Shown: piece by piece, positions 7,304 through 64,000 of the stretch
How positions within the stretch are numbered: the stretch's first letter is position 1
Layout of the letters: every line of letters begins with the position of its first letter
DNA from: Clostridia bacterium
GTDB taxonomy: Bacteria; Bacillota; Clostridia; TANB77; CAG-508
Length of the DNA stretch: 64,000 bases
NCBI GenBank assembly: GCA_022797215.1
Contig: JAAWKD010000002.1
Coordinates: 13 to 64,012, forward strand
Direction: 5' to 3'
Notes under the pieces: model-generated
What the model saw: only the letters and a program-made list of their open reading frames with translations
The model's database searches: none
What the model was told of the DNA's origin: nothing
Translations under genes and position numbers: made by a program

Positions 7304-7406
7304 AAGAAAATAAAATGCACACAACTATTATTAATAGAAGTGTGTGTTTTTGTTGTGTATAAACTAAAAACAAATTGTCACACAAAAATAGAAAGGAGAA
7401 ATTTTT

Positions 7407-7553: not shown

Positions 7554-7579
7554 TTCACCAAATATTCACAAAAAATATA

Positions 7580-7634
7580 TTGACAAACAGAAAAAAGAGA
7601 GTATAATAAAACTATAGGTCAAAGAAAGTCAAAG
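7580..7634 (+). promoter_or_regulatory. SigA-type promoter plus CtsR operator of the ctsR operon
   Basis: TTGACA (7580-7585), 16 nt, TATAAT (7602-7607). Directly followed by the tandem heptad GGTCAAAGAAAGTCAAAG (7617-7634), which matches the CtsR box consensus (A/G)GTCAAANAN(A/G)GTCAAA. Confidence 0.8.
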
Positions 7635-7669
7635 TCTAAAAATGCTAATAAAAGAAAGGAAGTGATGGA

Positions 7670-13172: not shown

Positions 13173-13213
13173 ATATAAAAACATATAATCAATTACTATA
13201 ATAACACAACTAA

Positions 13214-39969: not shown

Positions 39970-40006
39970 TCATACAAATAGTTATTTATAAATATGTAGG
40001 AGTAAA

Positions 40007-40822: not shown

Positions 40823-40831
40823 GGGGCAATT

Positions 40832-43858: not shown

Positions 43859-44716
43859 ATGGATAACGAGATAAAAAATATTTTTGGCGATATAAATAAT
43901 ATTTTTATAAGCAAATTACAGAGGGCTAAGAACAAGATAAATAATTTTAATGAAATTGAATTATTCAATGATTGTATAGATACATATAAACGTGCCTACA
44001 AACTGGTAGAGAATAATAGATTACTAGATGGAATAGTTTTAACTAGAAATGCATTTGAATTAATGATGATGTTATTTGGAATTAGAATTGATACCAATGT
44101 TAGAAAAGAATATTGCAAAGAAGATAGTTATGAACGTTATCTTGAAAGAAGAAAAATAAATAGGAAAGAAAAAGATTATTTATCGCAAAGCTACTTGAGG
44201 GAAATAATACTAAAAAAATATAAAAATATAGAGGAAGAATATAAGAAAATATACAATATTTTATCCAAATTTGCACATCCAACAATTCATAGAAATATAC
44301 TAAGATTTTTTGAAAGAGAAAAAGTAGATGTTGTATTGTTGTATCTAAAAATAATAATGGTTTTGCCAATATTATTTTTAGAAATATTATATGAAGAAAA
44401 AATAATAGATCACAATGTCTTTCAAGATTTTGTAGTATTTAAATATATTATAGAAAGATTAACTTTAATTTATTTTTGTAATAACACAGACAAAGGCAAA
44501 CTAAAGAAAGCAAATAAATATGCATTTTTAAATATTAATAAAGATTATTATGGAAAGATGGAAAGTAAGATAAAAAGAGAGATTAAAATAACTGAAAAAG
44601 AATTGAAAGAGAATCAAACAAAGTTTAAAGAAGCAATAGAAAAGCTTTTGTCTAAAGTAGAATATTATGATATTGCCAAGAAATTAGCAAATTTAAAATT
44701 AGTAATTGGAGATTGA
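43859..44716 (+). CDS. Hypothetical helical protein translationally coupled to hsdR
   Basis: Its ATG directly abuts the hsdR stop (TAAATG). 285 aa, Lys/Glu-rich. No catalytic motif recognised. Confidence 0.6.
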   Translation: MDNEIKNIFGDINNIFISKLQRAKNKINNFNEIELFNDCIDTYKRAYKLVENNRLLDGIVLTRNAFELMMMLFGIRIDTNVRKEYCKEDSYERYLERRKINRKEKDYLSQSYLREIILKKYKNIEEEYKKIYNILSKFAHPTIHRNILRFFEREKVDVVLLYLKIIMVLPILFLEILYEEKIIDHNVFQDFVVFKYIIERLTLIYFCNNTDKGKLKKANKYAFLNINKDYYGKMESKIKREIKITEKELKENQTKFKEAIEKLLSKVEYYDIAKKLANLKLVIGD

Positions 44717-44970: not shown

Positions 44971-45163
44971 AGCTTTAACAAGCATTGGAAGAATATCTAG
45001 AATTAATTTTACAAAGGAGAAGCAAAGTATGAGAGTAATTATAGTTACAGGATTATTTTGCTTTTTTGATGATAAATGGCAAAATATAATAAATTTTTGC
45101 AAAATGTAAATGATAAAATTATATATTACAATTAATACAATAAAAGTCGAAAGGATATATATT

Positions 45164-48100: not shown

Positions 48101-48892
48101 ATGAAACTGTTAATACCAAAGTTAAATGAACACTTAAATACGAGTACATATGAAGATAGTTTTAGTATATTAAGGAACAATAGAAAATTCTTTTGCAGTG
48201 AAAATGACAATTTGACAGAATATGTGCAATTTTTAGTGGATAATATAAAATTAGCAAACAGCCCTAATACAGTAATTGACGCACTAGATGAACATTTTAG
48301 TTATATATCAAAAATATATGAACTAAATAGAAATATTAAAGATTTAGAGGGATTTAATTATGATAAAGCATTTAAATTTATAGGAAAATCATTTGATAAT
48401 AAAAATTTGGGAACTGTTACTGATGATATAAATAGAATTCTTAGTGATAAAGGAACTGTACAAGATTGCTTAGACATAGAACTGAAAATGCACAAATATA
48501 CATTAAAAGATATAATTGAACAAGATAGTGAGAACATAGACACAATTGAAAATACCACATTATTAGAAAATATAATAGAATTATGTGCAAATAAGCAAAA
48601 ATTACTAGATTCAAAAACAGTTTTAAATTTTATTGCAAAAGCACTACAAAATATAGATAATACAGATCATATTATGGAGATTAATAATTTATTAAATGAA
48701 TTTGATAGAGTATACTTTAATGAAATTAAAAGCGAGTTAGGCGAAATTTTATATAATTGTTATCATATGACTACAAGTTGCACAATTAAAGTAGCAATGA
48801 TACAAAGAGCACGATATTACAAGGTTACAAGGATATTTAAAAATAAAATGCAAGATGAAGAAAAAGAATTTTATAATGATAATGTTGTATAG
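45164..48892 (+). pseudogene. Giant KAP-family P-loop NTPase interrupted by one in-frame TAA (45452-45454)
   Basis: Walker A IGKWGIGKSS. After the stop the same frame continues with the two KAP-specific TM helices (ISFAIFIVSIIAFTIY, VLIFPLILSFVTVTL) and Walker B VITVIDDLDRL. About 800 aa of helical C-terminal extension. No SD before the downstream ATG. Confidence 0.8.
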
Positions 48893-48949: not shown

Positions 48950-49258
48950 TTAAAACGGAATGTTATTATCTTTACAACATCCAAAAATGAACTGCACCCC
49001 ATCACAAAACCCATTCCTATAATATTTCTCATTCCAATAGCCAAGATAATCAATAAAATTATCATAAATCTGGTCCAACTGGACTTGAACATACTTCTTA
49101 TTTTCTTCAGAAACATTCGCCAAAATATTATCAGAAAGCTCATCAAAATAAAGGTAATGCTCCTTATCTTTTGTAGAATTATTAGCAAAGATTTGATCCT
49201 CTCTAAATTCTAACCAATCCTTTAAAATATCATCATTTACTTCTCTGAAATTATTCAT
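48950..49258 (-). CDS. Hypothetical small protein
   Basis: 102 aa from the ATG 8 nt after GGAGG. Convergent with the KAP gene. Confidence 0.5.
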   Translation of the reverse strand: MNNFREVNDDILKDWLEFREDQIFANNSTKDKEHYLYFDELSDNILANVSEENKKYVQVQLDQIYDNFIDYLGYWNEKYYRNGFCDGVQFIFGCCKDNNIPF

Positions 49259-49431
49259 AATCAATACCTCCATAAATCTAAAAATTACAAAATTTCCTTC
49301 GAAAATTTTGCATACTTAGGCTGTAACAAACAAGTTTTAACAGCCTAAGCAAACTGGGCTCAATTTGGGCACACCAAATATACCAATAAAAACTGACAGA
49401 AGCCTTGTAAATCAATACTTACAGAGAATTA

Positions 49432-49476
49432 CTCATAACCCGAAGGTCGTAAGTTCGAGTCTTACCCCCGCAACCA
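49432..49476 (+). other. 3' fragment of a tRNA-Met(CAT) gene (anticodon loop to CCA), a putative att core
   Basis: CTCATAA | CCCGA | AGGTC | GTAAG TTCGAGT CTTAC | CCCCGCA A CCA parses as anticodon loop, stem 3' strand, variable loop, T-arm, acceptor 3' strand and CCA. The upstream sequence cannot form the D-arm or the acceptor 5' strand (no TGCGGGG). A hairpin + T-run follows at 49489-49519. Confidence 0.7.
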
Positions 49477-49765
49477 AACGTATATCACTAGAACTATAAT
49501 GGTTTTAGTGATTTTTTGTTGCTTTTAAACAGTTTACGATAATGCTATTTTTAAGCCCTATTATGTAGAATTGGGTAAAAGTTGGGTAAAATAAGTACCT
49601 CAAACTACTTAAATTCTAATAAAAAATCATTAAAATTTTATACTTTTTTATAAAATAAAAGGCAATGGGAAATCTAAATTTTTCTATTTAGTTGCCTTTT
49701 AATTTCATATCGTGAAAATTGTAACGGCTTTATTTCCGTTTGTGAAAATTAGAAAAAAGTTTAAA

Positions 49766-50959
49766 TTAAGACCTTGCTGGTAATAACAAGTTTTCTAATG
49801 CATATCCAGCTTTTCTATTATGAGAAAGTAGTGGATGCACATAAAAATCTAATGTAGTGCTAATTTGTGCATGACCAAGTCTTGCAGAAATAACAGCTAT
49901 ATCAACATTCTGTGCTACTAGTAAACTTGCATTTGTATGTCTTAATCCGTGAAAATTAATTACAGGTAATCCAATTGTACTTACATATCTAACAAACCAT
50001 TTGCTAATTGAAGAAGGATGCATAGGTTTGCCATCAGCTTGTACAAATAACCTATCAGAATTAGTCCACAATTCGCCGTAAATGGATTTTTGTTCTTCAT
50101 ACCATAACTTATATTCCTCAAGTAAAGAAATAATAAATTCGGGTATTGCAATCTCTCTAATGGAACTTTCTGTTTTAGGTGTTTTTGTAAAAACTCCCAT
50201 ATCAGATAGATATTGACTAGAACGATTAATACTGATTATTCCATTTTTAAAATCAACATCTTGCCATTCTAGTCCCATTAACTCGCCTAAACGAACGCCA
50301 GTAAAGATTGTTAGAATGATAGCAACTTTATATTTAGTATCTTCAATAGAAAGTAGTTCTAAATTTTTAAGTAGTATTTTAGTTTGATCATCATCATAAG
50401 ATCTTCTTTTAGGTTTTCTAGCCTTAGGTGCTTGAACACGTTCTGCAGGATTAGCCACTATAAGTTGCCAATAAACTGCCTTATGAAGCATTGCTCTTAA
50501 TAATCTGTGATGTTCTAAAATCGTTTTGCCAGATAAAGGCTTTTTAGTTTTTTCGCCATTGTTACCACTTTTTCTAACTAACTGAGTATCTTTTTCAAGT
50601 AAATCATAAAACTTCATAATGTCAGTTGGTTTGATTTTGTTAATGTAAAAATGACCAAAGTAAGGTAAAAGTCTTGTTTCTAACATTCTACAATAACGCT
50701 TGTATGTAGTAGGAGCAAGTTCCTTTGAACCATAATCTCTTTTCCATATTTCTGTAAATTCAGAAAATCTAAGAGATTTACCATCAACAACTAAGCCATT
50801 TTGTACTTCAGTAACAAATTTCGCTAGTTCAACTTCTGCATCTTTTTTAGTTCCGTGTACTGTTTTTCTGTGTATCATAGGATTTCCATTTAAGTCAAAA
50901 CCTTCAGACACTGTTAGCCTGTAACTATTTTTGCCTCTTTTTTCTATACTCCCAGCCAT
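49766..50959 (-). CDS. int: Tyrosine recombinase / phage-type integrase
   Basis: N-terminal AP2-like arm-binding domain (GSIEKRGKNSYRLTV). Catalytic R (GVRLGEL), HGLRHT, LGHAQISTTLDFYVH (R-H-R-Y set). Confidence 0.93.
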   Translation of the reverse strand: MAGSIEKRGKNSYRLTVSEGFDLNGNPMIHRKTVHGTKKDAEVELAKFVTEVQNGLVVDGKSLRFSEFTEIWKRDYGSKELAPTTYKRYCRMLETRLLPYFGHFYINKIKPTDIMKFYDLLEKDTQLVRKSGNNGEKTKKPLSGKTILEHHRLLRAMLHKAVYWQLIVANPAERVQAPKARKPKRRSYDDDQTKILLKNLELLSIEDTKYKVAIILTIFTGVRLGELMGLEWQDVDFKNGIISINRSSQYLSDMGVFTKTPKTESSIREIAIPEFIISLLEEYKLWYEEQKSIYGELWTNSDRLFVQADGKPMHPSSISKWFVRYVSTIGLPVINFHGLRHTNASLLVAQNVDIAVISARLGHAQISTTLDFYVHPLLSHNRKAGYALENLLLPARS

Positions 50960-51163
50960 TACTTAATTCACCTCCTTTCAAGTATTCCTATGGGTGGGAG
51001 GAGTATGTATTTTATTGTTAACAAAACTATTATACAATAATAGTTAACAAAATGCAATAGTTTTCAAAAAGAAACTTAAAATTTTATAGCACTAAAAACA
51101 TTAATGAAAACTGGTTTTTAATGACAAAATATGATATAATGCGACTTATCAAGGAGGTAAAGA

Positions 51164-52510
51164 ATGAAATTTGGACTATTAGGATATTATCCAGAATATA
51201 ATCATAATGATATGGAAACAATAATTCTGTCTAACGATAAAACTATATTAGAATATGATGCATTACTAATAGATTTAAAAAATATATTTGAAGAGTATGC
51301 ATCTCATACTGAATTTAATGGGCTTCCACGAATAACTGATCATGATTCTACACGATTAAAGAAAGATTTGGAAAGAAGAAAAAGTGAAATAAAAGAATTT
51401 TTAGAGAGTGGCAAAAATATAATTGTTATTGGTGGTAATGATGAATGTGTTTATTGTTATTCAGGAAATAAAACTGTCTCTGGTACGGGAAGAAATGCTA
51501 AAACGACTTATTTAGTTGAAGATGTTCATTCTAGTTCATTGTTGCCTGTAACAATATCTTCATTAAATTTAACAGGGAGGTCAGTTTTTTTTACTAATAG
51601 AAAGATTATTGATATTTTTAATAAGTATATTGATTATATAGAATATAGAACAACTTATGAAAATGTAGAAGATAAAAATATTTTAATGACAATAAAAGGG
51701 ACAAAAAAAGTAATTTCTTATTATGAAAAAATAGGTAATGGCTTATTGATATTTGCTCCAGATTTAGCCTTTGATAAAACAGATCACAAGAAAGAATGTG
51801 CTTTAGAAAAAAAGTATTATAATGATTTAACTAATTTAAATACAGTTATTTCACAAAATGAAATCGATTTACCATTATATTCAAAAAAATATTTATTACA
51901 TAATGAAGAATTAATGATTAGTGATATAGAAAAAAGTAAAGATAAATTAAATAAACTTATGATTGATATTGAAAAAAAAGAAGCAAAATTACATGAGTTG
52001 CAAAATCAAAAAGTTATGTTCACAGGGACAGGAACACCACTAGAAATAAATTCTGTTGAAAATTTTAAGGAAATGGGGTTTTCAATAATTAAATATGATC
52101 CAAATTCGGTAGATGAAGATATAGTGATTAAATATAAAGAAAAAATAGCAGTTGTAGAAGTAAAAGGTGTATCTGGAAGTGCCACAGAAAAACATACATC
52201 ACAAATTGTAAAATGGAAATCTGAATATCATATAGAAAATGATATATTACCTAAAGGAATACTATTGGTAAATGCCTTCAATGAGAAAGAACTAGAAAAA
52301 AGACAAGAATATTTTCCTAATCAAATGTTAAAATATGCAACACATCAAGAAATTTGTCTTTTAACTACAATTCAATTATACAATATTAAAGAATATTTAA
52401 CGAATAATCCAAATGAGAAAGAAAAAATAGTTAATGAAATATTTGGAACAAATGGAATATATAAAGGATTTGAAGATTGGAAATTAAATATAAAAACAGG
52501 ACAAATTTAG
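51164..52510 (+). CDS. Hypothetical protein with coiled coil and C-terminal PD-(D/E)xK-like nuclease motif
   Basis: 448 aa with AAGGAGG SD. Coiled coil at ISDIEKSKDKLNKLMIDIEKKEAKLHELQNQK. C-terminal VDEDIVIKYKEKIAVVEVKGVSGSATEKHTSQIVKW fits a D...ExK...Q layout. Confidence 0.6.
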   Translation: MKFGLLGYYPEYNHNDMETIILSNDKTILEYDALLIDLKNIFEEYASHTEFNGLPRITDHDSTRLKKDLERRKSEIKEFLESGKNIIVIGGNDECVYCYSGNKTVSGTGRNAKTTYLVEDVHSSSLLPVTISSLNLTGRSVFFTNRKIIDIFNKYIDYIEYRTTYENVEDKNILMTIKGTKKVISYYEKIGNGLLIFAPDLAFDKTDHKKECALEKKYYNDLTNLNTVISQNEIDLPLYSKKYLLHNEELMISDIEKSKDKLNKLMIDIEKKEAKLHELQNQKVMFTGTGTPLEINSVENFKEMGFSIIKYDPNSVDEDIVIKYKEKIAVVEVKGVSGSATEKHTSQIVKWKSEYHIENDILPKGILLVNAFNEKELEKRQEYFPNQMLKYATHQEICLLTTIQLYNIKEYLTNNPNEKEKIVNEIFGTNGIYKGFEDWKLNIKTGQI

Positions 52511-52562
52511 ATGATTAAAATATTGTACAATTGAAAAGTTACACATTTATTTGTGTAACTTT

Positions 52563-53762
52563 TCAATTGTTTTCTAGCCACTTATCAAATTCTTCATAAG
52601 TTTTCTTTTCACTTCTAATTTCATCCATAAATTTTTTAGCTTCTTTTTTCCAATTCTCATAATCTTTTTTATAAACTTCTATATCAGGATTACGTTTAAC
52701 TAACATAGCTTTTTTAGAATATATTTTACGATATTTACCATAGACTTTATCATTTTCTTGTTTTACTCTTTGAGCAATTTGATTACCAATATCCCTGCAA
52801 GTTTGTTTGCCTTTGAATAAATTATTACAATAATTAATGCGAGGATTATCTGTTATAAAGTATTTACTACAATTTTTACACTTTTTTATTATATAATTAT
52901 TTTCTTCTACAAATTTAAATAATGTAATATAAAGTATGGTATAAACACTAGAGCTTGTTGCATTAGTTTCAGCATATACATCTGCAAAATGTTGACCTGT
53001 TGTAAAAAATTCTAATAATTTATCTTCACTGGTTTCAAGATACTTAGGAAAAATTTTATAATTAAAAGCATCATCTATTTTAAAATCAGTAACATATGGC
53101 TTTAGTGTTTTAAAATGTGAGGTGTAGTAAATATAAAATCTCATTTGGTTAGTCATTGTTCTTGAATTTTCAAGAGGATGTTTGCTAAAAATGTAGTCAA
53201 CAAATTCAGAGTAAATCTTTTGAACTTTTATGGTATCTTTTTTTATTAATTTGAAGTATTTTTGTCCTAAATTTTCAATTTCGTCATAACTATAAGACTT
53301 ATCAACCTTTAAATTCTCTATATCACTTTTTTCAAAATATTTTATATAAGAAGTAAAAAATTTAGTAAACCAAACAAAGTATTCATCAAAATTAGAGAAA
53401 TTTGTATTTAAAAAATCAATTAAATTTGTTCCCCTATCATAAATTGAGAAATGGTCTTTTATAAAAAAATGACAATTTGAAAGTTCGCCTAGTTCATAGT
53501 AATGCAATTTTTTAGGTATATCTAAATAATCTATCTTTCTTTTTATTTCATTAGTAAAAGATTTGGTTCTTAAATGTTTAGTAAATAATTCTTCATATTC
53601 TTTATATTCATTTTCAGTTAAGCAATCTTTTATAATATCTAAAATTGAAACACCTTTAGGTAATTTACGATCTGGATCGCCATACAATAAAGTTATATGT
53701 TTGATTTCTTCTCCATTATTAATAGAGATGTGTATATTGCTATTCACTTTATCTTCTTTCAT
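52563..53762 (-). CDS. Hypothetical protein with C-terminal zinc ribbon
   Basis: 399 aa with GGAGGAG SD. CKNCSKYFITDNPRINYCNN...CRDIG. Divergent from the excisionase-like gene. Confidence 0.55.
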   Translation of the reverse strand: MKEDKVNSNIHISINNGEEIKHITLLYGDPDRKLPKGVSILDIIKDCLTENEYKEYEELFTKHLRTKSFTNEIKRKIDYLDIPKKLHYYELGELSNCHFFIKDHFSIYDRGTNLIDFLNTNFSNFDEYFVWFTKFFTSYIKYFEKSDIENLKVDKSYSYDEIENLGQKYFKLIKKDTIKVQKIYSEFVDYIFSKHPLENSRTMTNQMRFYIYYTSHFKTLKPYVTDFKIDDAFNYKIFPKYLETSEDKLLEFFTTGQHFADVYAETNATSSSVYTILYITLFKFVEENNYIIKKCKNCSKYFITDNPRINYCNNLFKGKQTCRDIGNQIAQRVKQENDKVYGKYRKIYSKKAMLVKRNPDIEVYKKDYENWKKEAKKFMDEIRSEKKTYEEFDKWLENN

Positions 53763-53911
53763 AACTCCTCCGTTAACAGCTTATAAAATTATTAAAAGTT
53801 AACTTGCTATCAAAATAAACAATAAAGTATTTACAAAGTTAACTATACACAATATAATACAAATGTTAACAAAAGTCAATGCAAATTTGCTAAAAATCTG
53901 GAGGTGATACT

Positions 53912-54109
53912 ATGGAATTACAAAAAGGTCAAAGAACTACACTAACAATGAAAGAAGCATCAGAGTATCTAGGAATTTCATATTGGTTGGTAAATCAATT
54001 AGTAAGAAGAAAACAAATACCATGCTCAAAAGTTGGTGGAAAATATTTATTTAGAGTACAAGCACTAGATGAGTATTTAGAAAATATGGAACAACAATCT
54101 ATTAGTTAG
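53912..54109 (+). CDS. xis: Excisionase-family helix-turn-helix protein
   Basis: LTMKEASEYLGISYWLVNQLVRRKQIPCSKVGGKYLFRVQALDEYL is a MerR-like excisionase HTH. 65 aa. Confidence 0.8.
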   Translation: MELQKGQRTTLTMKEASEYLGISYWLVNQLVRRKQIPCSKVGGKYLFRVQALDEYLENMEQQSIS

Positions 54110-54137
54110 ATTGTAAGGAAAGTGGGGAAAGGAGGAT

Positions 54138-54644
54138 ATGTATAATTTACAATGGTTAAAACTAGAAATTAAAATATTTTCAAACAGGAAAATGCAAATA
54201 TTACTAAAAGAAACTGATGGAGATACATATTTTAGAGTATGGATTCAACTAATAACTATTGCTATGGAATGTAATAGTGAAGGAAAGTTAGTAATAGGAA
54301 AAAAAACACCAATGACAATAGAAAATTTTTCAAAGATTATGGGAAAGTCTAAGAAAAAAATGGAGAAAATTATTAAAAAATTTCAAGAATTAAATATGCT
54401 AATTATAGAAGAAGGAGCATACAAAATTAAAAATTGGAATAAATACCAAAGTGTTGAAACAACTGAAAAATATCAAGAACAAAATAGAATAAGACAACAA
54501 AGATACCGTGAAAAATTGAAAAGTGAAAAAGAAAAAAGTAACGTTACAATAACGGAAAATAACGAGGTAGAAGATAATACACAAGAAAAAAATACAAGAA
54601 AGGAGAATGAGAACAATAATGGATTTAGAGAATACAAAATATGA
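54138..54644 (+). CDS. Phage replisome organizer N-terminal domain protein
   Basis: WLKLEIKIFSNRKMQILLKETDGDTYFRVWIQLITIAMECNSEGKL matches the replisome-organizer N-domain pattern as I remember it. Basic/acidic tail. Confidence 0.65.
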   Translation: MYNLQWLKLEIKIFSNRKMQILLKETDGDTYFRVWIQLITIAMECNSEGKLVIGKKTPMTIENFSKIMGKSKKKMEKIIKKFQELNMLIIEEGAYKIKNWNKYQSVETTEKYQEQNRIRQQRYREKLKSEKEKSNVTITENNEVEDNTQEKNTRKENENNNGFREYKI

Positions 54645-55467
54645 AAATTGTCAAAAGAATTTTCACAATAAATGCAAATTTTGTGGAAAAGAGTTAAAGC
54701 CAATAGGATTAGACTACTTATACACTAATGTATCTTCAGAATTAATTGAATATGAAAGATGCACTTGTAAAGAATCAAAAGATTATTGGAAAGATATAGA
54801 CTTTAGGATTCAAGAGCAGAAAAAGAAAGAACATTATAGAGAAATGATTAGCCAATTTTATTCTCAAAATTATATTAGTAAAAGGCTAAAAGATTATAAT
54901 TTTAATAATTTTAAAGTAACAGATGTTAATAAAAGAGAAGAAGCAATTGCAAAAGATTATACAAAGAAATGCATTGAAAACAAACAAGAAAATGGACTTA
55001 TTATTACTGGGAATTCTGGAGTAGGAAAAACACATTTAGCAGCATCAATTTTAAATGAATTAATAGAAGAAGATAAACTAGTTTTAATGGGAAGATTAAC
55101 ATCATTATTAGATATGATAAAGGAAACTTTTAAAGATAATTCAAAGTCAGAAAATGAGTTAATAGAATTATTTTCTAATGTAGATATGGTTGTAATAGAT
55201 GATTTAGGAACAGAAAAAATAAGCAGTTGGGCATTGGACAAGCTATATACAATTATAGAAAATAGAAATGAAAATAAGTTACCAATTATCATAACAACTA
55301 AATTTGATAAAGAAGGCTTACTACATAGATTTAAGCAAAGTAATGACAAAGAATTATCGGACGCAATTATTCAAAAATTATATCAAATGTGTTATGGAAT
55401 TGAACTAAAAAGATATGATGAAAATCAAAAAGAAAAAGCTAGCACAAGCGACCAAACTAAATGCTAA
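54607..55467 (+). CDS. DnaC/IstB-like AAA+ helicase loader
   Basis: Walker A GNSGVGKTHLA, Walker B MVVIDDLGTE, N-terminal Cys cluster. The start is uncertain (54607 or 54619). Confidence 0.8.
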   Translation: MRTIMDLENTKYENCQKNFHNKCKFCGKELKPIGLDYLYTNVSSELIEYERCTCKESKDYWKDIDFRIQEQKKKEHYREMISQFYSQNYISKRLKDYNFNNFKVTDVNKREEAIAKDYTKKCIENKQENGLIITGNSGVGKTHLAASILNELIEEDKLVLMGRLTSLLDMIKETFKDNSKSENELIELFSNVDMVVIDDLGTEKISSWALDKLYTIIENRNENKLPIIITTKFDKEGLLHRFKQSNDKELSDAIIQKLYQMCYGIELKRYDENQKEKASTSDQTKC

Positions 55468-55519
55468 CTTAATCCAAAACCTAAATTTATTATAGTATAT
55501 TTTGCTATAAAAGTAAAGC

Positions 55520-55561
55520 AAAAAAGTTCAAATTTTTATTTTAGAAATTTGAACTTTTTTG
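55520..55561 (+). terminator. Intrinsic terminator after the replication module
   Basis: AAAAAGTTCAAATTT...AAATTTGAACTTTTTT. Confidence 0.75.
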
Positions 55562-55792
55562 AAAATCTTTAAATAAAAATTAAGAAAATTTTTACTTAAA
55601 GAAGTCCCTCGGAGAGCAAAAAGGGTATTAGGACATTTTGTCCTAAACAGCAAAAACGGTGTCAAGACACCAAGCTGGTGAATATTAGGTAATAAAAAAT
55701 ATTACCTATATTCAAGCAAAATAAATTTTTCTAAATCTTAATGCTTCGTAAACTAGCATTAAGATATTTGCACAGAAAGGAAATAATAAAAA

Positions 55793-56416
55793 ATGAAAGT
55801 AGATTCAGAGCAATTTTTTGATAGTATTTTTTTATCATACAATAAAATTTTAGAGAGATTACATGTATTGGGGATAACAACTAAAAATGGTAAAGAAATA
55901 TCAGAATTAGATTTAAGAAGAGCGATAGATATAATGGTAAAAAAACATCCAACTTGTAGATGGAGAAGTGAAAAAATTAGAAGTAGAAAATATTTTGTTT
56001 TGATTGAAGGGTACTACTGGCTAACTCAAGTCTATTTTCAAAAAGAAAAGTCTTTAATAGATGCTGATATAGATTTTTTCAAATTAAGGATTAAACAATA
56101 TGAAGAATTGCTAAAAATAGAACATAATGAAAATTGGTGGAATCAAGATATGGATATAAAACAGTTATCTATATATTTTAATAGAGAAGATATCACTGTT
56201 AGAAAAGCAATTAAAAAGATGTGTAATAGTGGGTTAGAAGAATATAAATTTTTAGTTGATAATAAAGTTGTAATTTCTAGTAAATGTATTGAGTGGATTT
56301 GCAAAAATATATTTAAACAGAAGTATATAGAATTATTAGAGAAGTACAAGATGGAATTAACAGAGTTGTACATTGAAGCAGGGTATCCTTATGATAATTT
56401 TTTTCATAAAAATTAA
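55793..56416 (+). CDS. Hypothetical protein (possible DNA-binding regulator)
   Basis: 207-aa ORF. No clear motif; the segment SIYFNREDITVRKAIKKM looks HTH-like. Confidence 0.5.
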   Translation: MKVDSEQFFDSIFLSYNKILERLHVLGITTKNGKEISELDLRRAIDIMVKKHPTCRWRSEKIRSRKYFVLIEGYYWLTQVYFQKEKSLIDADIDFFKLRIKQYEELLKIEHNENWWNQDMDIKQLSIYFNREDITVRKAIKKMCNSGLEEYKFLVDNKVVISSKCIEWICKNIFKQKYIELLEKYKMELTELYIEAGYPYDNFFHKN

Positions 56417-56514
56417 AAAGCATATTGACAATAAAACAAACGTTTAGTAAACTTATAAAAATAAAAACTGGAAAAAAATAAAAAAATATGATATATATAT
56501 AAGGGGTGATATAA

Positions 56515-59499
56515 ATGCAACTATCAAAAGAAAATGAAAACAAATTATTTGAACTAATTAACAAATATAGAGATAATAAGAAATATTATAAAGAAAATCC
56601 TAAATCATTCCCAGAGTTTGAATGTAGATTGGAATATATAGATATATTTCTAAAATTACTCGGATGGGATGTAGAAAATACAAAGTGTGTATCACCTGCT
56701 AAAAAAGAGGTTGTAGTAGAACATTTTGCTGATGATAATAATAAAGATAAGCCTGACTATACATTAACATTAAGAGGAATAAGCAAATTTTTTGTTGAAG
56801 CTAAAAAGCCATCTGTAGATATCTCAAAGGAAAAAGAACCGTCATTTCAAGCTAGAAGATATGGTTGGAATGCAGGACACAAAATAGTAGTATTGACTAA
56901 TTTTGAATACTTAATGATTTATGAATGCACATATGCGCCAAATATCAATGATGGAGCTAATGTAGCACTATTTAGGAAATATTATTATGAAGAATATTTA
57001 GAAAAATTTGAAGAAATCTCAGAAATAATATCTAGAGACAGTATTTATAGTGGGCATTTCGAAGAACTTACAAATCAAAATTTTAAGGATACAAGAACTA
57101 AACTTTCAGTTGATGAATATTTTTTAGAACAAATAAATAAATGGCGTGTGGAATTAGCAAATCATTTATATTTACAGAATAAAAAAAAATATAGTAATGC
57201 AGAGATTCTAAATGATGAAACACAAAGATTTATAAATCAAATTGTGTTTTTAAGGATATGTGAAGATAAGAATTTACCATTATACCATAGTTTAAAGAAT
57301 AATATAAGAGATACTAAAACATTGAAACAAGAACTAAATAGAATGTTTAAAGAAGCAGATAAAAGATATAATTCTGGGTTATTTAAAGACGAAAATATCT
57401 TATTTGATTTAAATAATGATATTATAATGAAAATGATAAATGAGTTATATTATCCACAAAGTCCATATCTTTTTAACATAATAGAACCTAATTTATTAGG
57501 AAAAATGTATGAAATGTTTCTAACAGAAGAATTTCAAATCATTGATAATAAGGTAGTATTATTAACTCGAGAAGAATGTATAAACAGATCTGTTGTAAAA
57601 ACACCTGATGAAATAGTAAAATATATAGTTGAAAATACCCTTAAACCTTTATGCTTGAATAAGACTCCTCAAGAAATACTAAAAATAAAGATAGCAGATA
57701 TTTCTTGTGGTTCGGGTATATTTTTAGAAGAAGCTATGAACTTTTTAAATGAATATTGTATTGAGTGGTATAAGGAAAACCATATAGAATATTTAGAAAA
57801 AACAGGACCAGAACAATATAAATTACCTTTAACAGAAAAAAAGAAAATATTGACATCATGCATTTATGGAATAGATATAGATATTCATGCTGTTGAAGTA
57901 TCAAAATTTTCGTTACTTATAAAATTGATAGAAGATGAAAATATACCTACAACAATAGATGTAAAACCAATATTACCAGATTTAGATGAAAATATTAAAT
58001 TTGGCAATTCTTTGATTGAAAAAGAAGATATTAATTCCGTTAATATTACTTTAGAGGATGAAACAAAAATAAAAGCATTTGATTGGAATTTGATAAATAA
58101 AGGAGAAAAATTTGATGCAATTATAGGAAATCCGCCTTATGTTTGTACAGAGGATATGCATAATTTATTATCAGAACTTGAATTTGAGATTTATTTAAAT
58201 AAATTTAAAACACCATATAAACAATTTGATAAATATTACTTATTTATTGAACAGGCGCTAAAAAAGATAAAAGATAATGGATATGTAAGTTATATCGTTA
58301 CTAATAAATTCTATAAAATAGTAGCCGGTAGAAAGCTAAGAGAATATATAGCTGAAAATAATTATTTGATGTCTTTAATAGATTTTGGAAGTAATCAATT
58401 ATTCGAAGATAAGACGACATATTCAGCAATTATAACTCTTAGTAAGAAAAACAATAGCAAATTTGAATATGCAGAAGTAAAAAATGTATCTGAATTATGG
58501 ACGGAAAATTATAAAAAGATTTATGTGGATATTTCTAATATTACATCTGAACCATGGATATTATCTACAGATAAGAACTTTATCAATATGACAAAGAAAT
58601 TAAAAGATGATAATGTAACTATACCAATTACTGACATTGTAGATATAACTGCAGGAATCCAAACTAGTGCAAATGGAGTATATATCTTTGATAAGTCAGA
58701 GTTAATCGAAATTGATGAGAAAAAATATAAAATTATACGCAATGGTAAGACATATTATATTGAGAAAAATATATTAAGAAAATTTTTCAAAATAAAAGGT
58801 TTAACAACATATGAAAATAACATATATGCTGACAAATATATAATTTTTCCTTATAATAAAGAAGGGATACTCTACACTGAAGAAGAAATGAATAAATATT
58901 TTAGAGGAACATTTCAATATCTTACAGACAATTATGAAAAATTAAGTAAAAGAAAAATGAACATAACTGCTAATATTAATAATTGGTATCAATATGGAAG
59001 AGTTCAACACTTAAGAACATTTAATAAGCCTAAATTAATTTGTGGAGTTCTAAGTAAGCCATATAATCCTTCTTATATGTATGATACTGAAAATATGCTA
59101 ATAGAAGCAGGAGGAACTGCTGGTCGTGTAGCAATTTTCTTGAAAGACACTATAGAGGCACAAAAATATGATTTACTATATATTCAGGCATGGTTAAATC
59201 ATCCATATACAGAAAAAATATTGTCAGTATTAGGAAGTGATTTTGAAAGTGGATTTTTTAGTAGAGGACAAGTTCAATTAAGTCAATTAAGATTTGTAAA
59301 GTTAGACTTTAATAATTTGAATCATAAGAATCTTCACGATAATGTAGTACAAAAAGCAAAACAAATACAAGAAATTAATAATAAACTTACAGAAGAATAT
59401 TTAAGCAGAGAAGTTAGAAAACTACTAGAAAGCAAAAGACTAGATATAAAATTAGAAATAGAAGAATTAATAAAAAAAGTATATTTATTGGAGATTTAA
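56515..59499 (+). CDS. Type IIG restriction enzyme / N6-adenine methyltransferase fusion (Eco57I-like)
   Basis: N-terminal PD-(D/E)xK (KPDYTLTLRGISKFFVEAKKP), methylase motif I DISCGSGIFLEEA, motif IV IIGNPPYV, then a long C-terminal recognition region. 994 aa. Confidence 0.85.
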   Translation: MQLSKENENKLFELINKYRDNKKYYKENPKSFPEFECRLEYIDIFLKLLGWDVENTKCVSPAKKEVVVEHFADDNNKDKPDYTLTLRGISKFFVEAKKPSVDISKEKEPSFQARRYGWNAGHKIVVLTNFEYLMIYECTYAPNINDGANVALFRKYYYEEYLEKFEEISEIISRDSIYSGHFEELTNQNFKDTRTKLSVDEYFLEQINKWRVELANHLYLQNKKKYSNAEILNDETQRFINQIVFLRICEDKNLPLYHSLKNNIRDTKTLKQELNRMFKEADKRYNSGLFKDENILFDLNNDIIMKMINELYYPQSPYLFNIIEPNLLGKMYEMFLTEEFQIIDNKVVLLTREECINRSVVKTPDEIVKYIVENTLKPLCLNKTPQEILKIKIADISCGSGIFLEEAMNFLNEYCIEWYKENHIEYLEKTGPEQYKLPLTEKKKILTSCIYGIDIDIHAVEVSKFSLLIKLIEDENIPTTIDVKPILPDLDENIKFGNSLIEKEDINSVNITLEDETKIKAFDWNLINKGEKFDAIIGNPPYVCTEDMHNLLSELEFEIYLNKFKTPYKQFDKYYLFIEQALKKIKDNGYVSYIVTNKFYKIVAGRKLREYIAENNYLMSLIDFGSNQLFEDKTTYSAIITLSKKNNSKFEYAEVKNVSELWTENYKKIYVDISNITSEPWILSTDKNFINMTKKLKDDNVTIPITDIVDITAGIQTSANGVYIFDKSELIEIDEKKYKIIRNGKTYYIEKNILRKFFKIKGLTTYENNIYADKYIIFPYNKEGILYTEEEMNKYFRGTFQYLTDNYEKLSKRKMNITANINNWYQYGRVQHLRTFNKPKLICGVLSKPYNPSYMYDTENMLIEAGGTAGRVAIFLKDTIEAQKYDLLYIQAWLNHPYTEKILSVLGSDFESGFFSRGQVQLSQLRFVKLDFNNLNHKNLHDNVVQKAKQIQEINNKLTEEYLSREVRKLLESKRLDIKLEIEELIKKVYLLEI

Positions 59500-59507
59500 T
59501 AGATACA

Positions 59508-61142
59508 ATGAAAATGAAAAAAGAGTGTACAGATAAAAAAATAAATGGAGTTTACTATACTCCTTATAAATTAGCATCATTTATATGTAATTTATACAAA
59601 GAAAATAATGTATCACGAATACTTGAACCTAGTTGTGGGGAAGGAGTATTTATAGAAGCATTATGCGATAATAATATGATAGATAATATAAGAGAAATAG
59701 TTGGAGTAGAATACAATAAAGAATCTTGGACTATTTGTAGAAATAAATTTAAAGATGTCAAAAAAGTAAAGATAAAACATAAAGATTTTTTAGAATATTA
59801 TCAAAAGAATAAGAACAAGAAATACGATCTAATAATAGGAAATCCTCCTTACATAAGATATCAATATCTAAAAGAAGAGCAAAGAATTAATCAATCAGAA
59901 ATATTAAAAGAAGTTGGAATGAAATCAAATAAATTAATTAATGCATGGGTATGTTTTTTAGTAGCTTGTGTAAATTTACTATCCGAAAATGGAAAGATTG
60001 CTTTTGTTATACCAGCAGAAATATTGCAAGTTGCCTATGCAGAAGAATTAAGAATGTATTTATCAGAAGTATTATCAAAGATAACATTAATAACTTTTAA
60101 TTCTATAATATTTCCTGATATAGAGCAAGAAACATTAATTTTTATTGCAGAAAAAGGAAACAAGAAGGAAGGAATAAGAATAATAGAATTAAATGATTTA
60201 GATGACTTGGAAAACTTTGAATATAATGAAGTGGGGTATCAAAAAATGAATCCTTCTAAGGATAAGTGGCTTAAATATTTTATTTCGAATAAGGAAAATG
60301 AATTAATTGAACAAATTAAGAAAAATAAGTATTTTAAAAAGTTTTCTGATTTTGGAATTATTAATATAGGTATTACAACAGGTAATAATGACTATTTCTC
60401 GATTGATGATGCTACTTCAAAAAAATATGAATTGGATGGTGTGTGTTTACCTCTAATTGGTAGAAGTTCCCATGCTGAAAGTATATTTTTTACTGAAAAT
60501 GACTTACAAAATAATATAAAATCAGGGAAAAAAGCAAAATTAGTATGTTTTCCAAATAGTGATTATAATAAATATTCTAATAAAAATAAAGCCTATATAA
60601 AATATGGTTTAGATAATAAAGTAAATGAAGGATATAAATGCTCAATAAGAGATAAATGGTATATAATACCATCTGTTTGGGTACCAGATGCATTCTTTTT
60701 AAGAAGAAATAATATATATCCTAAATTTGTAATTAATAAATGCAATGCTGTTTCTACTGATACGATGCATAGAATAAAATTTTACGATAATATAGATAAA
60801 GAAAAAGTTCTATTGTCATATTATAATAGTATATCTTTTGCATTTACTGAAATATGTGGTAGAAGTTATGGGGGTGGAGTACTAGAAATATTACCTGGTG
60901 AAATGGGAAAAATAATGCTTCCAGATTTATCACAAATGGATCAGAAAATTGTTCATAAATTAGTGAAATTCATAGATAAACAGATGCGTCAGGAAGCAGA
61001 TATTAATACAATATTAGATGAAGTTGATGAACAGGTTTTAATTAAATATATGAAAATAGATTATGAGACATGTCAACATTTCAGGAATATGTGGAACAAG
61101 ATGAAAAATCGTAGATTGGACAGAGCTAAGAATGCAAGATAA
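59508..61142 (+). CDS. Stand-alone N6-adenine DNA methyltransferase (gamma class)
   Basis: Motif I LEPSCGEGVFIEAL, motif IV IIGNPPYIRYQ. 544 aa, 8 nt after the type IIG gene. Confidence 0.88.
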   Translation: MKMKKECTDKKINGVYYTPYKLASFICNLYKENNVSRILEPSCGEGVFIEALCDNNMIDNIREIVGVEYNKESWTICRNKFKDVKKVKIKHKDFLEYYQKNKNKKYDLIIGNPPYIRYQYLKEEQRINQSEILKEVGMKSNKLINAWVCFLVACVNLLSENGKIAFVIPAEILQVAYAEELRMYLSEVLSKITLITFNSIIFPDIEQETLIFIAEKGNKKEGIRIIELNDLDDLENFEYNEVGYQKMNPSKDKWLKYFISNKENELIEQIKKNKYFKKFSDFGIINIGITTGNNDYFSIDDATSKKYELDGVCLPLIGRSSHAESIFFTENDLQNNIKSGKKAKLVCFPNSDYNKYSNKNKAYIKYGLDNKVNEGYKCSIRDKWYIIPSVWVPDAFFLRRNNIYPKFVINKCNAVSTDTMHRIKFYDNIDKEKVLLSYYNSISFAFTEICGRSYGGGVLEILPGEMGKIMLPDLSQMDQKIVHKLVKFIDKQMRQEADINTILDEVDEQVLIKYMKIDYETCQHFRNMWNKMKNRRLDRAKNAR

Positions 61143-61263
61143 TTATAAGTACTACTAAAGAGAAATAATTTTATTTCTCTTTTTGTATATTTTGATATAA
61201 AAATACAAAATTCGACAAACTTTGCAAATATAATAATTTATAATGTTATATAAGGAGGAAAAA

Positions 61264-62460
61264 ATGCCACAAAATAGAGAAGCAATAGATACTATAAAAG
61301 GGTATTATTACCAATTTGATTATTTTATATTAAAATTACTAGAAGAAAAAAATAAAGATACATATATTTATTTAGAAGGAATAGAAGACATAGATATTGA
61401 AGATATAGATTCAAAAAAAGCTATTCAGTGTAAATATTATGATAAAACAGAATACCAACACTCAGTTATAAAAAAGCCTATTATAGAAATGTTTAAGCAC
61501 TATTCTGAAAATAAGCAGAGAAATTTTCAATACTATATTTATGGTCATTATAAGTGTGGACAAGAAAAATTACCTGATAATTTTAATATAGAGTTCTTAA
61601 AAAAGAATTTTTTGACTTATAAAAAAGATAATATAAAACATAAAGTTTTTGAAGAATTAAATATAAGTGATGCAGAAATAGAGAAATTCAAAGGTAAATT
61701 AAAAATTAATATCTCAGCAGACAGTTATGAACAACAAGAAAAAAGAATAAAAACTTTAATTCGAAAAATATATAATTGTGATGATGAACTTTCTCAATAT
61801 TATTATAGTAATGCATTAGCAATTGTTAAACTAATAGCAACAAATTCAAATATACAAAAAAGAAAAATTACTCCGAATCAATTTGTAACAATGCTAAAAA
61901 ATAACAAAGAAAAAGTTTTCAATAGCTTATATATACATAAGCAGGGAATAGAAAAGTATTGTAGACTTATTAAAAAAACATATTTTTCTACTCTTAATAT
62001 ATCGCCTTATGAGAGATTTTTTCTAATAGAATGTGATCAATTTATAAGCGATGAAGAGATTAAAGGATTAGTTTATCAAATAAGCAAAAAATGGTGTAAT
62101 ATTTCTAAGAGAAATGATAAGCCTTATTGTCCATATATATTGCTGTATGGAGTAACGGAAAGTAGATTAAAAAAGATAAAAACTAACATACAACTTGAAA
62201 GACACAATTTTATTGATGGATATGATTTTAAAGATGCTGATTTTTGTGTGCAATCTCTAATAAGACAAGCTGATAAAGAGAACAAAATAGAATTTAAAAT
62301 CGTTAATAATATTAAAGAGTTAGATAAGTCTATCAAGCAAATAGATAAAACAAAAGAAGTCTATGAATTTTATTTAGAAAAATCATTTTATCAAAGTAAA
62401 ATAGATAAATGTGTAGAGATTAAAATAACAAGTACTTTAGACGTAGAAAATATGATATAG
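61264..62460 (+). CDS. DUF4297/Cap4-like nuclease-domain protein, partner of HerA
   Basis: Start at the ATG behind TAAGGAGGAAAAA. N-terminus REAIDTIKGYYYQFDYFILKLL...YLEGIEDIDIEDIDSKKAIQCKYY has the GYxYQ helix plus an E/D...QxK nuclease core. The remainder is unassigned. Confidence 0.7.
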   Translation: MPQNREAIDTIKGYYYQFDYFILKLLEEKNKDTYIYLEGIEDIDIEDIDSKKAIQCKYYDKTEYQHSVIKKPIIEMFKHYSENKQRNFQYYIYGHYKCGQEKLPDNFNIEFLKKNFLTYKKDNIKHKVFEELNISDAEIEKFKGKLKINISADSYEQQEKRIKTLIRKIYNCDDELSQYYYSNALAIVKLIATNSNIQKRKITPNQFVTMLKNNKEKVFNSLYIHKQGIEKYCRLIKKTYFSTLNISPYERFFLIECDQFISDEEIKGLVYQISKKWCNISKRNDKPYCPYILLYGVTESRLKKIKTNIQLERHNFIDGYDFKDADFCVQSLIRQADKENKIEFKIVNNIKELDKSIKQIDKTKEVYEFYLEKSFYQSKIDKCVEIKITSTLDVENMI

Positions 62461-62477
62461 ATAAGGAGAAGTTTAAA

Positions 62478-64000
62478 ATGGAAGAAAATATTAATGCGGA
62501 AGTTATTGGAGTTTTTCCAGATAAAATAAAAATATCAGTAGATGATTTGGAAAATTTTTCGTTAGCTAATGAAAGTTTAAAAGTTGGCTCATATTTAAGA
62601 GTGTTAGATAATGAAAATGCAGTGTTAATAGCCATAATAGAGAATTTTTCAATTGAGGTAAAAGAAGATGAAAAAAAGAAATATATTATTGAAGCAACAC
62701 CTTTAGGATTAATTATTGATGGGAAATTTCAAAGGGGAGGAGATACTATTGCAATACCTCCTAAAAGGGTAGAGCCTGCCAAAAGGGAAGAAATTGAAAA
62801 GATATTTATGGATTCAATAGAGAAGAACAAGAAGTTTGTCTTTGCAAAGTTGTCTACTGACAATACTATTAATGTACCAGTAGATGGTAATAAGTTCTTT
62901 AATAAACATATTGCAATAGTGGGTTCTACAGGATCTGGAAAATCTCATACTGTTGCTAAAATAGTCCAAGAAGCAATAAATAGTAAAGATAATGGATATA
63001 ATGGACTAAATAATTCACATATTGTGATATTTGATATTCATTCAGAATATAAATCTGCATTTCCAAATGCAAATTGTATCGATATAGATAATTTGATTTT
63101 ACCATATTGGTTATTAAATAGCGACGAGTTACAGGAATTATTTATAGATACAGAAGCAAATGATCATAACCAACGTAATGTTTTTAAAGAGTCAGTGGTT
63201 TCAAATAGAAAAAAATATTTTGATGGTAGTGATAAAGAAAAAGATAAAATTCATTTCGATTCACCTTTATTCTTTGAAATAAACGACATATTAAAAGATG
63301 CAAAAGATAAAAATGAAGAAATGGTTCCAGGAGCAAGAGATACAATGAAAGCAGGTCCTTTAAATGGGAAACTTTCAAATTTTGTGAGTAGATTGGAAAA
63401 TAAAATTAATGACAAAAGGTTAGAGTTTTTATTAGGTGATAGATCTAAAAAAATAACTTTTGAAGAAACATTAAAGCAACTAATAAGTTATGATAGCAAT
63501 AAATCAAATGTAACAATTATAGATTTAAGTGGTATTCCATTTGAAGTATTGAGTATAACAGTATCTCTAATATCAAGAATTTTATTTGAATATGGTTATT
63601 ATTATAAGAGACTTAGATGTAAGAAAAATCCGAATGAAAATGTAAACAATGATGTTCCAATATTATTGGTATACGAAGAAGCTCATAAATATGTTCCAAA
63701 TAGTGATCTTTCAAAATATAGAGCTTCTAAGCAATCAATTGAAAGAATAGCAAAAGAAGGAAGAAAATATGGAGTATCTATGTTATTAGCAAGTCAAAGA
63801 CCATCAGAAATATCTGAGACGATATTTTCACAATGTAATAATTTTATAGCTATGAGACTAACTAATCCTACAGATCAGAATTATGTGAAAAAATTATTAC
63901 CTGATACATATGGAGGATTAATAAACAAAATGCCAACTCTAAAAGCGGGTGAAAGTTTACTAATAGGAGATTCCATTATTGTACCATCAATGGTTCAAAT
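62478..64000 (+). CDS. HerA/DUF87-type ATPase (partial, continues beyond window)
   Basis: ATG 8 nt after TAAGGAGAAG, translated by hand. N-terminal barrel (VGSYLRVLDNENAVLIAIIENF), Walker A IAIVGSTGSGKSHTV, Walker B ILLVYEEAHKYVP, then GVSMLLASQRPSEIS and FIAMRLTNPTDQ. No stop before 64000. Confidence 0.85.
   Translation, partial: MEENINAEVIGVFPDKIKISVDDLENFSLANESLKVGSYLRVLDNENAVLIAIIENFSIEVKEDEKKKYIIEATPLGLIIDGKFQRGGDTIAIPPKRVEPAKREEIEKIFMDSIEKNKKFVFAKLSTDNTINVPVDGNKFFNKHIAIVGSTGSGKSHTVAKIVQEAINSKDNGYNGLNNSHIVIFDIHSEYKSAFPNANCIDIDNLILPYWLLNSDELQELFIDTEANDHNQRNVFKESVVSNRKKYFDGSDKEKDKIHFDSPLFFEINDILKDAKDKNEEMVPGARDTMKAGPLNGKLSNFVSRLENKINDKRLEFLLGDRSKKITFEETLKQLISYDSNKSNVTIIDLSGIPFEVLSITVSLISRILFEYGYYYKRLRCKKNPNENVNNDVPILLVYEEAHKYVPNSDLSKYRASKQSIERIAKEGRKYGVSMLLASQRPSEISETIFSQCNNFIAMRLTNPTDQNYVKKLLPDTYGGLINKMPTLKAGESLLIGDSIIVPSMVQ

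Follow-up and report, generated by a model that had tools for sequence, protein, structure and literature searches.

The last two genes of a 64,000-nucleotide stretch of contig JAAWKD010000002.1 of a Clostridia bacterium (hereafter the window) are an open reading frame at 61264-62460 (gene 1) and a second one running from 62478 onward (gene 2), and they most likely constitute an anti-phage DUF4297-HerA system like the one characterised in Escherichia coli. We put the probability of this identification at roughly 0.93, because it is backed alike by curated hidden Markov models (HMMs), by solved structures, by the conservation of catalytic residues and by synteny. The initial annotation of the stretch, made from the letters and their translations, had already placed the pair in this class, as a DUF4297/Cap4 effector with a HerA ATPase acting against phages, and that inference is supported by the same evidence. 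In the HMM searches that it proposed, PADLOC and NCBIfam models match both proteins and Pfam matches HerA alone; the family matches have E-values of 1e-76 to 1e-264, far past chance. The coordinates, length and motifs it gave for gene 1 were found again in the open reading frame and its translation (GYYYQ at residues 13-17, EGIEDIDIE at 38-46 and IQCK at 54-57), as were the start of gene 2 just after gene 1 and its Walker A (GSTGSGKSH, residues 149-157), Walker B (VYEEAH, 398-403) and ASQRPSE (438-444) motifs. Both genes are co-oriented and separated by a spacer of 17 nt (Table 1).

The membership of gene 1 in the DUF4297 family is based on matches over nearly its whole length. It was recognised by the PADLOC DUF4297 model PDLC02187 (1.8e-137; residues 3-398 of the protein and positions 2-404 of 404 in the profile) and by the NCBIfam equivalog NF042945, DUF4297_antiphage (442.9 bits, where the curated cut-off is 300; residues 5-398, profile 1-400 of 400). 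In a search of solved structures, chain 8xav_G (E. coli DUF4297) is matched over residues 4-376 (9.3e-76), and the further DUF4297 chains 9c1m and 8ziq are also found (2.5e-16 and 1e-12, respectively), most strongly in the nuclease domain. The initial annotation had allowed for the case that 61264-62460 has no DUF4297 or Cap4 hit; in substance the hit is there, in PADLOC and NCBIfam, while a Pfam scan of gene 1 gave no DUF4297 or Cap4 match even at E <= 10. This miss is uninformative, because a control Pfam scan at E <= 10 of the E. coli reference DUF4297 (6801-7985 of locus L098; L numbers denote related loci) and of two other family members found none either. All 120 homologues listed likewise have an empty precomputed Pfam field. 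Hence the miss is a property of the Pfam model and not counter-evidence on membership.

The predicted fold of gene 1 leads to the same family. An AlphaFold model, for which 56 homologues were aligned, has a mean predicted local distance difference test score (pLDDT) of 91, and its best Foldseek match is the E. coli DUF4297 crystal structure 8zgi_A (4.5e-31). For the PD-(D/E)xK domain that the initial annotation had seen in the first ~70 residues, the DUF4297/Cap4 identity stands with the curated HMMs and the fold, but the size does not, since the region up to about residue 225 appears in the model as the whole Cap4-like nuclease domain, including the helices of the active dimer. The ~300 C-terminal residues that had seemed to carry no recognisable motif are the rest of this nuclease domain along with a C-terminal domain (CTD) of ~170 residues. 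The CTD model superimposes on the CTD-only chains 8xaw_Q and 8xav_M with a template modelling (TM) score of 0.91 and a root-mean-square deviation of 1.6-1.7 A (172 columns for 8xaw_Q). In the solved complexes this domain, named 'UFO' by Rish et al. (bioRxiv 10.1101/2024.10.24.620088), builds two six-membered DUF4297 layers and docks on the N-terminal barrel of HerA (PMC11291478; bioRxiv 10.1101/2024.10.24.620088). The gene 1 CTD has, as modelled, the fold used for oligomerisation and HerA docking, and it is predicted to oligomerise. Moreover, the residues G13, Y14, Y16, Q17, E38, E41, D42, D44, Q55, C56 and K57 are invariant in the 56-homologue alignment, and D42, Q55 and K57 correspond by alignment to D40, Q53 and K55 of the E. 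coli protein. In E. coli, defence was abolished by D40A/Q53A/K55A in DUF4297 and by K157A in HerA (PMC11291478).

Gene 2 is assigned to HerA by the PADLOC model PDLC02188 (3.9e-264), by the solved HerA chain 8xau_A (2.6e-212) and by Pfam DUF87 (1.5e-36). On the NCBIfam model HerA_antiphage_2 (NF042944) the truncated product of 507 residues scores 841.8 bits, just under the cut-off of 850, because ~36 residues are missing at the window end; the complete orthologue in L011, which is 91% identical, reaches 906.5 bits. Full-length orthologues of the same clade have 543 residues, so that ~36 C-terminal residues lie beyond the window. The ATPase site is complete by alignment, as the Walker A lysine, the Walker B acidic pair and the trans-acting arginine finger are all kept; the acidic pair E426/E427, the arginine finger R455/K456 and the DNA contacts R284/K287 of E. 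coli HerA are described in PMC11291478. The description of gene 2 as a HerA/FtsK-like ATPase holds on the PADLOC HerA model, the 8xau_A match and the kept catalytic residues.

A HerA-like ATPase might instead belong to the transfer or mobilisation machinery of the element (VirB4, TraG/VirD4 or FtsK-type), gene 1 then being an unrelated element gene. This could fit with the position of the pair on an integrase-bearing element with a replication module, with the relaxase and ParB-like gene of the related element in L011, and with secondary Pfam matches of gene 2 to FtsK_SpoIIIE and TrwB_AAD_bind. However, these secondary matches are confined to the P-loop (residues 142-202 for TrwB), whereas the best matches are to anti-phage HerA models (842-876 bits), and gene 2 is 61% identical to a solved defence HerA. 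As for the VirB4/TraG-type module that the initial annotation had named as a refuting outcome, TraD/VirD4 matches are negligible, with E-values of at least 0.01 (0.012-0.075 for the VirD4/TraD models of NCBIfam, far below their cut-offs). The pairing with DUF4297 is also constant whatever the surroundings, including E. coli chromosomal loci without adjoining transfer genes. We consider the transfer function effectively refuted, with hardly any probability left to it.

The gene pairing is nearly invariable. Among the first 97 related loci, collected from genomes, assemblies and metagenomes ahead of this analysis, HerA lies directly 3' of DUF4297 in 95, and the remaining two are cut. What follows HerA, on the other hand, differs between lineages: a short-chain dehydrogenase in L001, a UDP-glucose dehydrogenase in L008, a sigma factor in L007, a PD-T4-6-like protein kinase in L015-L018 and an opposite-strand gene in L003. 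In L011, it is a protein of 284 residues (12863-13717; 18 nt spacing) with no Pfam or PADLOC match, which is 41% identical to the DUF5677-like open reading frame at 43859-44716 of the window. A conserved third gene was rejected, as the downstream genes differ across the 10 lineages compared. The published context analysis of Rish et al. (bioRxiv 10.1101/2024.10.24.620088) likewise reports no other family at >=35% frequency around the system, and in E. coli loci the pair stands alone beside ygbA, annotated with exactly the names DUF4297 and HerA. Because downstream genes vary by lineage, and the published analysis and the E. coli loci agree with this, no third partner gene is expected beyond base 64000 on sequence grounds, contrary to the earlier suggestion that further partners may follow.

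At E <= 1e-5, 625 database proteins match gene 1, none with a recorded Pfam domain (some of them are named 'DUF4297 family anti-phage-associated protein' by NCBI), and 419 metagenome stretches encode relatives. The system is present in 14 of 5426 complete E. coli genomes. In the genome scan the best match is an uncultured Clostridium sp. metagenome-assembled genome, with 64% and 88% identity for DUF4297 and HerA, respectively. Carriage of the pair by phages was also considered and dropped, as just 4 distant relatives (34-40% identity) were found among 2.9 million viral contigs searched.

The way in which the system would work can be drawn by analogy from the E. coli study (PMC11291478) and a review (PMC12198126), according to which both enzymatic activities are needed in vivo. 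Six HerA subunits would form a ring, and twelve DUF4297 subunits would stack in two layers on its N-terminal barrel through their CTDs, giving a predicted 6:12 complex of ~1 MDa. Assembly would make the HerA ring planar and ATPase-competent, with the arginine finger brought to the ATP site, and would bring the upper layer's Cap4-like nuclease domains together as dimers. HerA would then move double-stranded DNA (dsDNA) through its central channel, and the D42/Q55/K57 sites would cut it without sequence specificity. Host and phage DNA would both be degraded, so that the infected cell may die or arrest, as in abortive infection.

Compared with the E. coli reference (WP_016239654/WP_016239655; PDB 8xau-8xay and 8zgi; An et al., Cell Res 2024, PMC11291478), the window pair has two genes in identical order and nearly abutting, full-length matches for both proteins, a Cap4-like nuclease followed by an alpha/beta CTD, and a HerA with N-terminal barrel, RecA-like core and helix bundle. 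The D/QxK active site, Walker A, Walker B and arginine finger are shared as well. The two differ in sequence (37% identity for DUF4297 and 61% for HerA) and in the low-GC host of the window pair (guanine-cytosine content, GC, ~29%). Furthermore, the window pair is found on an integrase-bearing element behind an Eco57I-type pair, whereas that of E. coli stands alone by ygbA, and its HerA has a helix-bundle insertion that is ~30 residues shorter. The span from FDSP to NGKL measures 31-32 residues, compared to 60-62 in E. coli, and the deleted stretch holds the E. coli DNA-contact residues R284/K287. This short form is found in 14 of 30 distinct family sequences. In E. coli, the ring is closed at its base by the insertion, to which a part in the autoinhibition of free HerA is also ascribed (PMC11291478). 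Other solved HerA-DUF4297 complexes (9c1m/9c1n/9c5x of Rish et al.; 8ziq/8zir/8zit) have the same architecture, with HerA matches of 2.7e-122 and 9.3e-109 and full-length fold matches to the gene 1 model, but their effectors are far more distant (17-22% identity in structural alignments).

Several systems share single components with the pair. In SIR2-HerA the HerA hexamer is also the platform for effector assembly and activation (window HerA against 8j4u/8su9, 7.7e-22), but the effector there is a SIR2 NADase and not a nuclease, and the C-terminal hook of HerA is reported absent (PMC12198126). This identity was discarded, as gene 1 has no SIR2 match in Pfam or PADLOC and gene 2 scores 143.8 bits on NF042943 (HerA_antiphage), where the cut-off is 800. 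The nuclease fold and D...QxK site of the gene 1 N-terminal domain are common to Cap4 of cyclic oligonucleotide-based anti-phage signalling systems (CBASS), Avs3 and LmuA of Lamassu, which are distant fold matches of the gene 1 model (Foldseek: 8dgc, 1e-6; 6wan/6vm6, ~1e-5; 9ux7/9nxx, ~1e-5), and effectors of this type are also activated by oligomerisation-driven dimerisation (PMC11291478). Unlike them, gene 1 has no SAVED, STAND or SMC-type partner domain, and by analogy it would be activated by docking on the HerA ring, with neither a cyclic nucleotide nor a phage protein sensor involved. Their sequence similarity to gene 1 is too low for HMM detection (no Pfam match). CBASS Cap4 was rejected in particular, since the C-terminal domain of gene 1 matches the DUF4297 CTD and not SAVED, and its neighbours are restriction-modification genes and HerA. 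The archaeal HerA-NurA end-resection system shares the HerA fold and ring ATPase (window HerA against 4d2i, 1.4e-23), whereas the window pair is bacterial, borne by a mobile element and in a defence context. It was set aside as well: the partner gene is DUF4297 and not NurA, and gene 2 scores 109 bits on NF040819 (helicase_HerA; cut-off 970) and 118.5 on NF040937 (cut-off 800).

Some points weigh against the identification as an active DUF4297-HerA system. Pfam has no DUF4297 match for gene 1, though the reference protein has none either; gene 1 shares only 37% identity with the characterised DUF4297; and with the short insertion, the regulation and DNA grip of HerA may differ from those in E. 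coli. Any expression and activity in this host are putative. In addition, the 3' end of HerA lies outside the window, so that the gene is only presumed intact. In E. coli, the C-terminal ~36 residues form a hook locking neighbouring subunits (PMC11291478); the hook segment is present in the 543-residue orthologues of L011 and L001, and in the window it lies beyond base 64000.

These last points lend themselves to the view that the locus is a decayed or silent copy, with HerA truncated or frameshifted past the window or the pair unexpressed. The last ~36 HerA codons are out of sight, the splitting of the KAP NTPase gene nearby into two open reading frames shows that some decay has occurred in the island, and no promoter was identified. 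Yet both frames are open over all visible sequence, all catalytic and invariant residues are kept, and neither ribosome-binding site is damaged. Among the closest relatives (81-92% identity), moreover, the 543-residue HerA gene is complete on many contigs. We regard decay or silence as very unlikely, and the DUF4297-HerA locus is apparently intact.

Upstream of the pair, an A/U-rich hairpin with a T tract follows the stop codon of a methyltransferase gene (Table 1). Its fold has an energy of -12.7 kcal/mol (z = -4.4), and 0 of 200 shuffled sequences were as stable. The hairpin is kept in L011 and L015, where two one-sided changes turn an A-U or G-C pair into G-U, pairs that are tolerated solely in the RNA of the + strand. 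A consensus terminator scan of the window does not list it, because its stem has two G-C pairs and the scan needs three. It resembles a weak intrinsic terminator or attenuator. In the leader up to gene 1, a promoter scan of the + strand (61185-61263) returned no consensus sigma-70 site, and by eye only poorly spaced hexamers are seen. Nucleotide homology of the window with L011 begins at 61145, directly past the methyltransferase stop codon, and with L015 at 60972, within the 3' end of the methyltransferase gene, just a remnant of which is left in L015. Because the homology starts at or near the methyltransferase end, the hairpin, the leader and the two genes move together as a cassette. The initial annotation had described an independent operon behind a terminator. 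The hairpin is real and conserved, but independence is unproven because the hairpin is weak, no promoter was found, and in the other same-strand lineages with an Eco57I-type pair the methyltransferase gene ends 5-33 nt before DUF4297 (5 nt in L003-type loci). Read-through from the restriction-modification genes is thus possible, as judged from these sequences.

The restriction-modification genes in question, at 56515-61142, encode a type IIG endonuclease-methyltransferase and an M.Eco57I-like methyltransferase with the Pfam families Eco57I, M_Eco57I_C and N6_Mtase, and are a separate defence system that is a recurrent neighbour of DUF4297-HerA. With lineages clustered at 90% DUF4297 identity, 7 of 31 assessable lineages have an Eco57I-type pair immediately next to DUF4297-HerA, 5 of them with both pairs on one strand and 2 (L079 and L087) with the Eco57I-type pair on the opposite strand. 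The linked loci are the window, L003, L004, L011-L014, L029-L031, L033-L039, L041, L050, L079, L081, L087 and L092, while L015-L018 have only the remnant of the methyltransferase 3' end. Across the linked lineages, identity amounts to 32-57% for the restriction-modification proteins and to 40-49% for DUF4297. Modules have also been exchanged: the window and L011 share 36-38% identity in the restriction-modification proteins and 81/91% in DUF4297/HerA, whereas L003 and L036 share 98-99% and 84/77%, respectively. In the collection of papers searched, none names both DUF4297 and Eco57I.

It is conceivable, though unlikely in our judgement, that the type IIG enzyme, the methyltransferase, DUF4297 and HerA form a functional unit of four genes in which the pair is coupled to the restriction system. 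Restriction-made DNA ends might serve as an entry point or trigger of the HerA ring, or the pair might provide back-up killing when restriction is overwhelmed or inhibited. The four-gene arrangement recurs in these 7 lineages across deep divergence and survives module exchange; the 5-nt spacing in L003-type loci, the remnant retained in L015 and the lack of a promoter in the intergenic leader of the window would also agree with coupling, and the infection trigger of DUF4297-HerA is not known even for the E. coli reference. However, about three quarters of the lineages have no restriction-modification pair, the E. coli system is alone in its locus and protects when cloned as two genes (PMC11291478), and the published context analysis found no partner family at the frequency given above. 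The orientation in L079 and L087 also speaks against a common unit, as do the conserved hairpin between the two units in the window and the homology with L011 that begins exactly past the methyltransferase stop. Defence genes cluster in islands anyway, and the linkage may be mere defence-island clustering on a family of small mobilisable elements, TnpV genes being recurrent in the loci. Beside coupling to the Eco57I-type pair, the short HerA insertion, which lacks the R284/K287 segment, could reflect a different mode of control, an option that we also hold to be improbable.

A mobile element with an integrase gene, in a low-GC chromosome, carries the DUF4297-HerA pair as cargo. The first ~34 kb of the window hold housekeeping genes (for instance a ClpC-like ATPase, prolyl-tRNA synthetase and cysteine desulfurase), and GC is ~30% in this part and 23-28% past 44 kb, with ~29% for the organism. 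From 35.9 kb the gene order is RhuM/Fic, a type I restriction-modification system, a DUF5677-like gene, the split KAP NTPase, a convergent gene of 94 residues, a tRNA-Met fragment, a tyrosine integrase, an unknown gene of 448 residues, DUF6076, a replication organiser and loader, an unknown gene of 207 residues, the Eco57I-type pair and DUF4297-HerA. Three restriction or defence systems are thus found within 27 kb of the window. The split KAP gene has probably been disrupted; it lies where the GC of the island is lowest (22-23%). The DUF5677-like gene is found behind hsdR in the window and behind HerA in L011, and may be an accessory trailing different defence operons. The convergent gene, of 94-97 residues, is also present in L011 (13829-14122), L015 (14488-14778) and L020/L022/L027 with 55-62% identity, close to the DUF4297-HerA cassettes and often with TnpV, and seems to belong to the backbone of the carrier elements.

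The 45-nt tRNA-Met fragment occurs once in the window, where no whole tRNA genes were detected, and an identical fragment lies in L011 and L035 beside a different integrase (27% identity). The fragment is probably an att junction of the carrier element, possibly of tandemly inserted elements. The element of L011-L014 and L035, which carries the closest relatives (81% identity in DUF4297 and 91% in HerA), has the same backbone (DUF6076, replication organiser and loader) and also ParB(-like) and relaxase genes. There the genes after HerA are the DUF5677-like gene, the convergent gene of 97 residues and TnpV; the tRNA fragment comes 1.9 kb past HerA, with an unrelated integrase farther on. By analogy with L011, the window pair would lie near the element end that is far from its own integrase, in accordance with the 'distal end of the integrative element' of the initial annotation, but that end itself is outside the window. 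A megablast search with 49000-64000 as the query found nothing among plasmids and phages, and an Rfam scan of the window was likewise empty.

Table 1. Features of the DUF4297-HerA locus and of its surroundings in the window
Feature	Position	Strand	Remarks
Gene 1, DUF4297 open reading frame	61264-62460	+	398 aa; stop TAG ends at 62460
Ribosome-binding site of gene 1, AAGGAGG	61252-61258	+	5 nt 5' of start
Cap4-like PD-(D/E)xK dsDNA nuclease domain, aa 1 to ~225 (predicted extent)	61264-61938	+	HMM, residues, fold matches
Catalytic D42; Q55; K57	61387-61389; 61426-61428; 61432-61434	+	aligned with E. coli D40/Q53/K55
C-terminal alpha/beta domain (CTD, 'UFO'), aa ~226-398 (predicted extent)	61939-62460	+	AlphaFold model and Foldseek
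Gene 2, HerA open reading frame	62478-64000	+	ATG start; 507 codons without a stop up to base 64000
Ribosome-binding site of gene 2, AAGGAGA	62463-62469	+	own site in spacer
HerA Walker A	62922-62948	+	K155 = E. coli K157
HerA short helix-bundle insertion, aa 282-288	63321-63341	+	alignment with E. coli HerA
HerA Walker B	63669-63686	+	E400/E401 = E. coli E426/E427
HerA arginine finger R429/K430	63762-63767	+	= E. coli R455/K456
A/U-rich 11-bp hairpin AAAGAGAAATA-ATTT-TATTTCTCTTT and T tract	61157-61184	+	stem-loop 61157-61182; 15 nt after methyltransferase stop
Conserved leader, hairpin to gene 1	61185-61263	+	alignment with L011, L015
Type IIG endonuclease-methyltransferase, 994 aa	56515-59499	+	PADLOC REase_MTase_IIG 1.2e-252
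M.Eco57I-like methyltransferase, 544 aa	59508-61142	+	PADLOC MTase_II 6.5e-171
RhuM/Fic gene	35916-36728		precedes type I system
Complete type I restriction-modification system	37197-43858	+	hsdM, hsdS, 271-aa open reading frame 40007-40822 (unannotated), hsdR
DUF5677-like gene, 285 aa	43859-44716	+	abuts hsdR end
KAP-family P-loop NTPase, split: 114-aa N-terminal and 1108-aa open reading frames	45110-45454; 45566-48892	+	111 nt apart
Convergent small gene, 94 aa	48977-49258	-	
tRNA-Met-like 3' fragment, 45 nt	49432-49476	+	anticodon loop CTCATAA, T arm, CCCCGCAACCA
Tyrosine integrase	49766-50959	-	Pfam Phage_integrase 1.7e-24
Phage-type replication organiser and DnaC/IstB-like loader	54138-55467		

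The locus is an ordinary new example of a well-characterised system that is already solved structurally and tested in E. coli; the system is contained in PADLOC and NCBIfam, named automatically by the Prokaryotic Genome Annotation Pipeline (PGAP) of NCBI, and known from several cryo-EM structures and phage-challenge data. Its value is that it documents the system in a low-GC (~29%) organism, as cargo of a small integrative element, and adds a member to the short-insertion HerA clade, one without structural study so far. The recurrent Eco57I-type linkage might bear on what activates the complex during infection. If the coupling were true, restriction-made ends or the failure of restriction could be the trigger or the loading substrate of the HerA ring.

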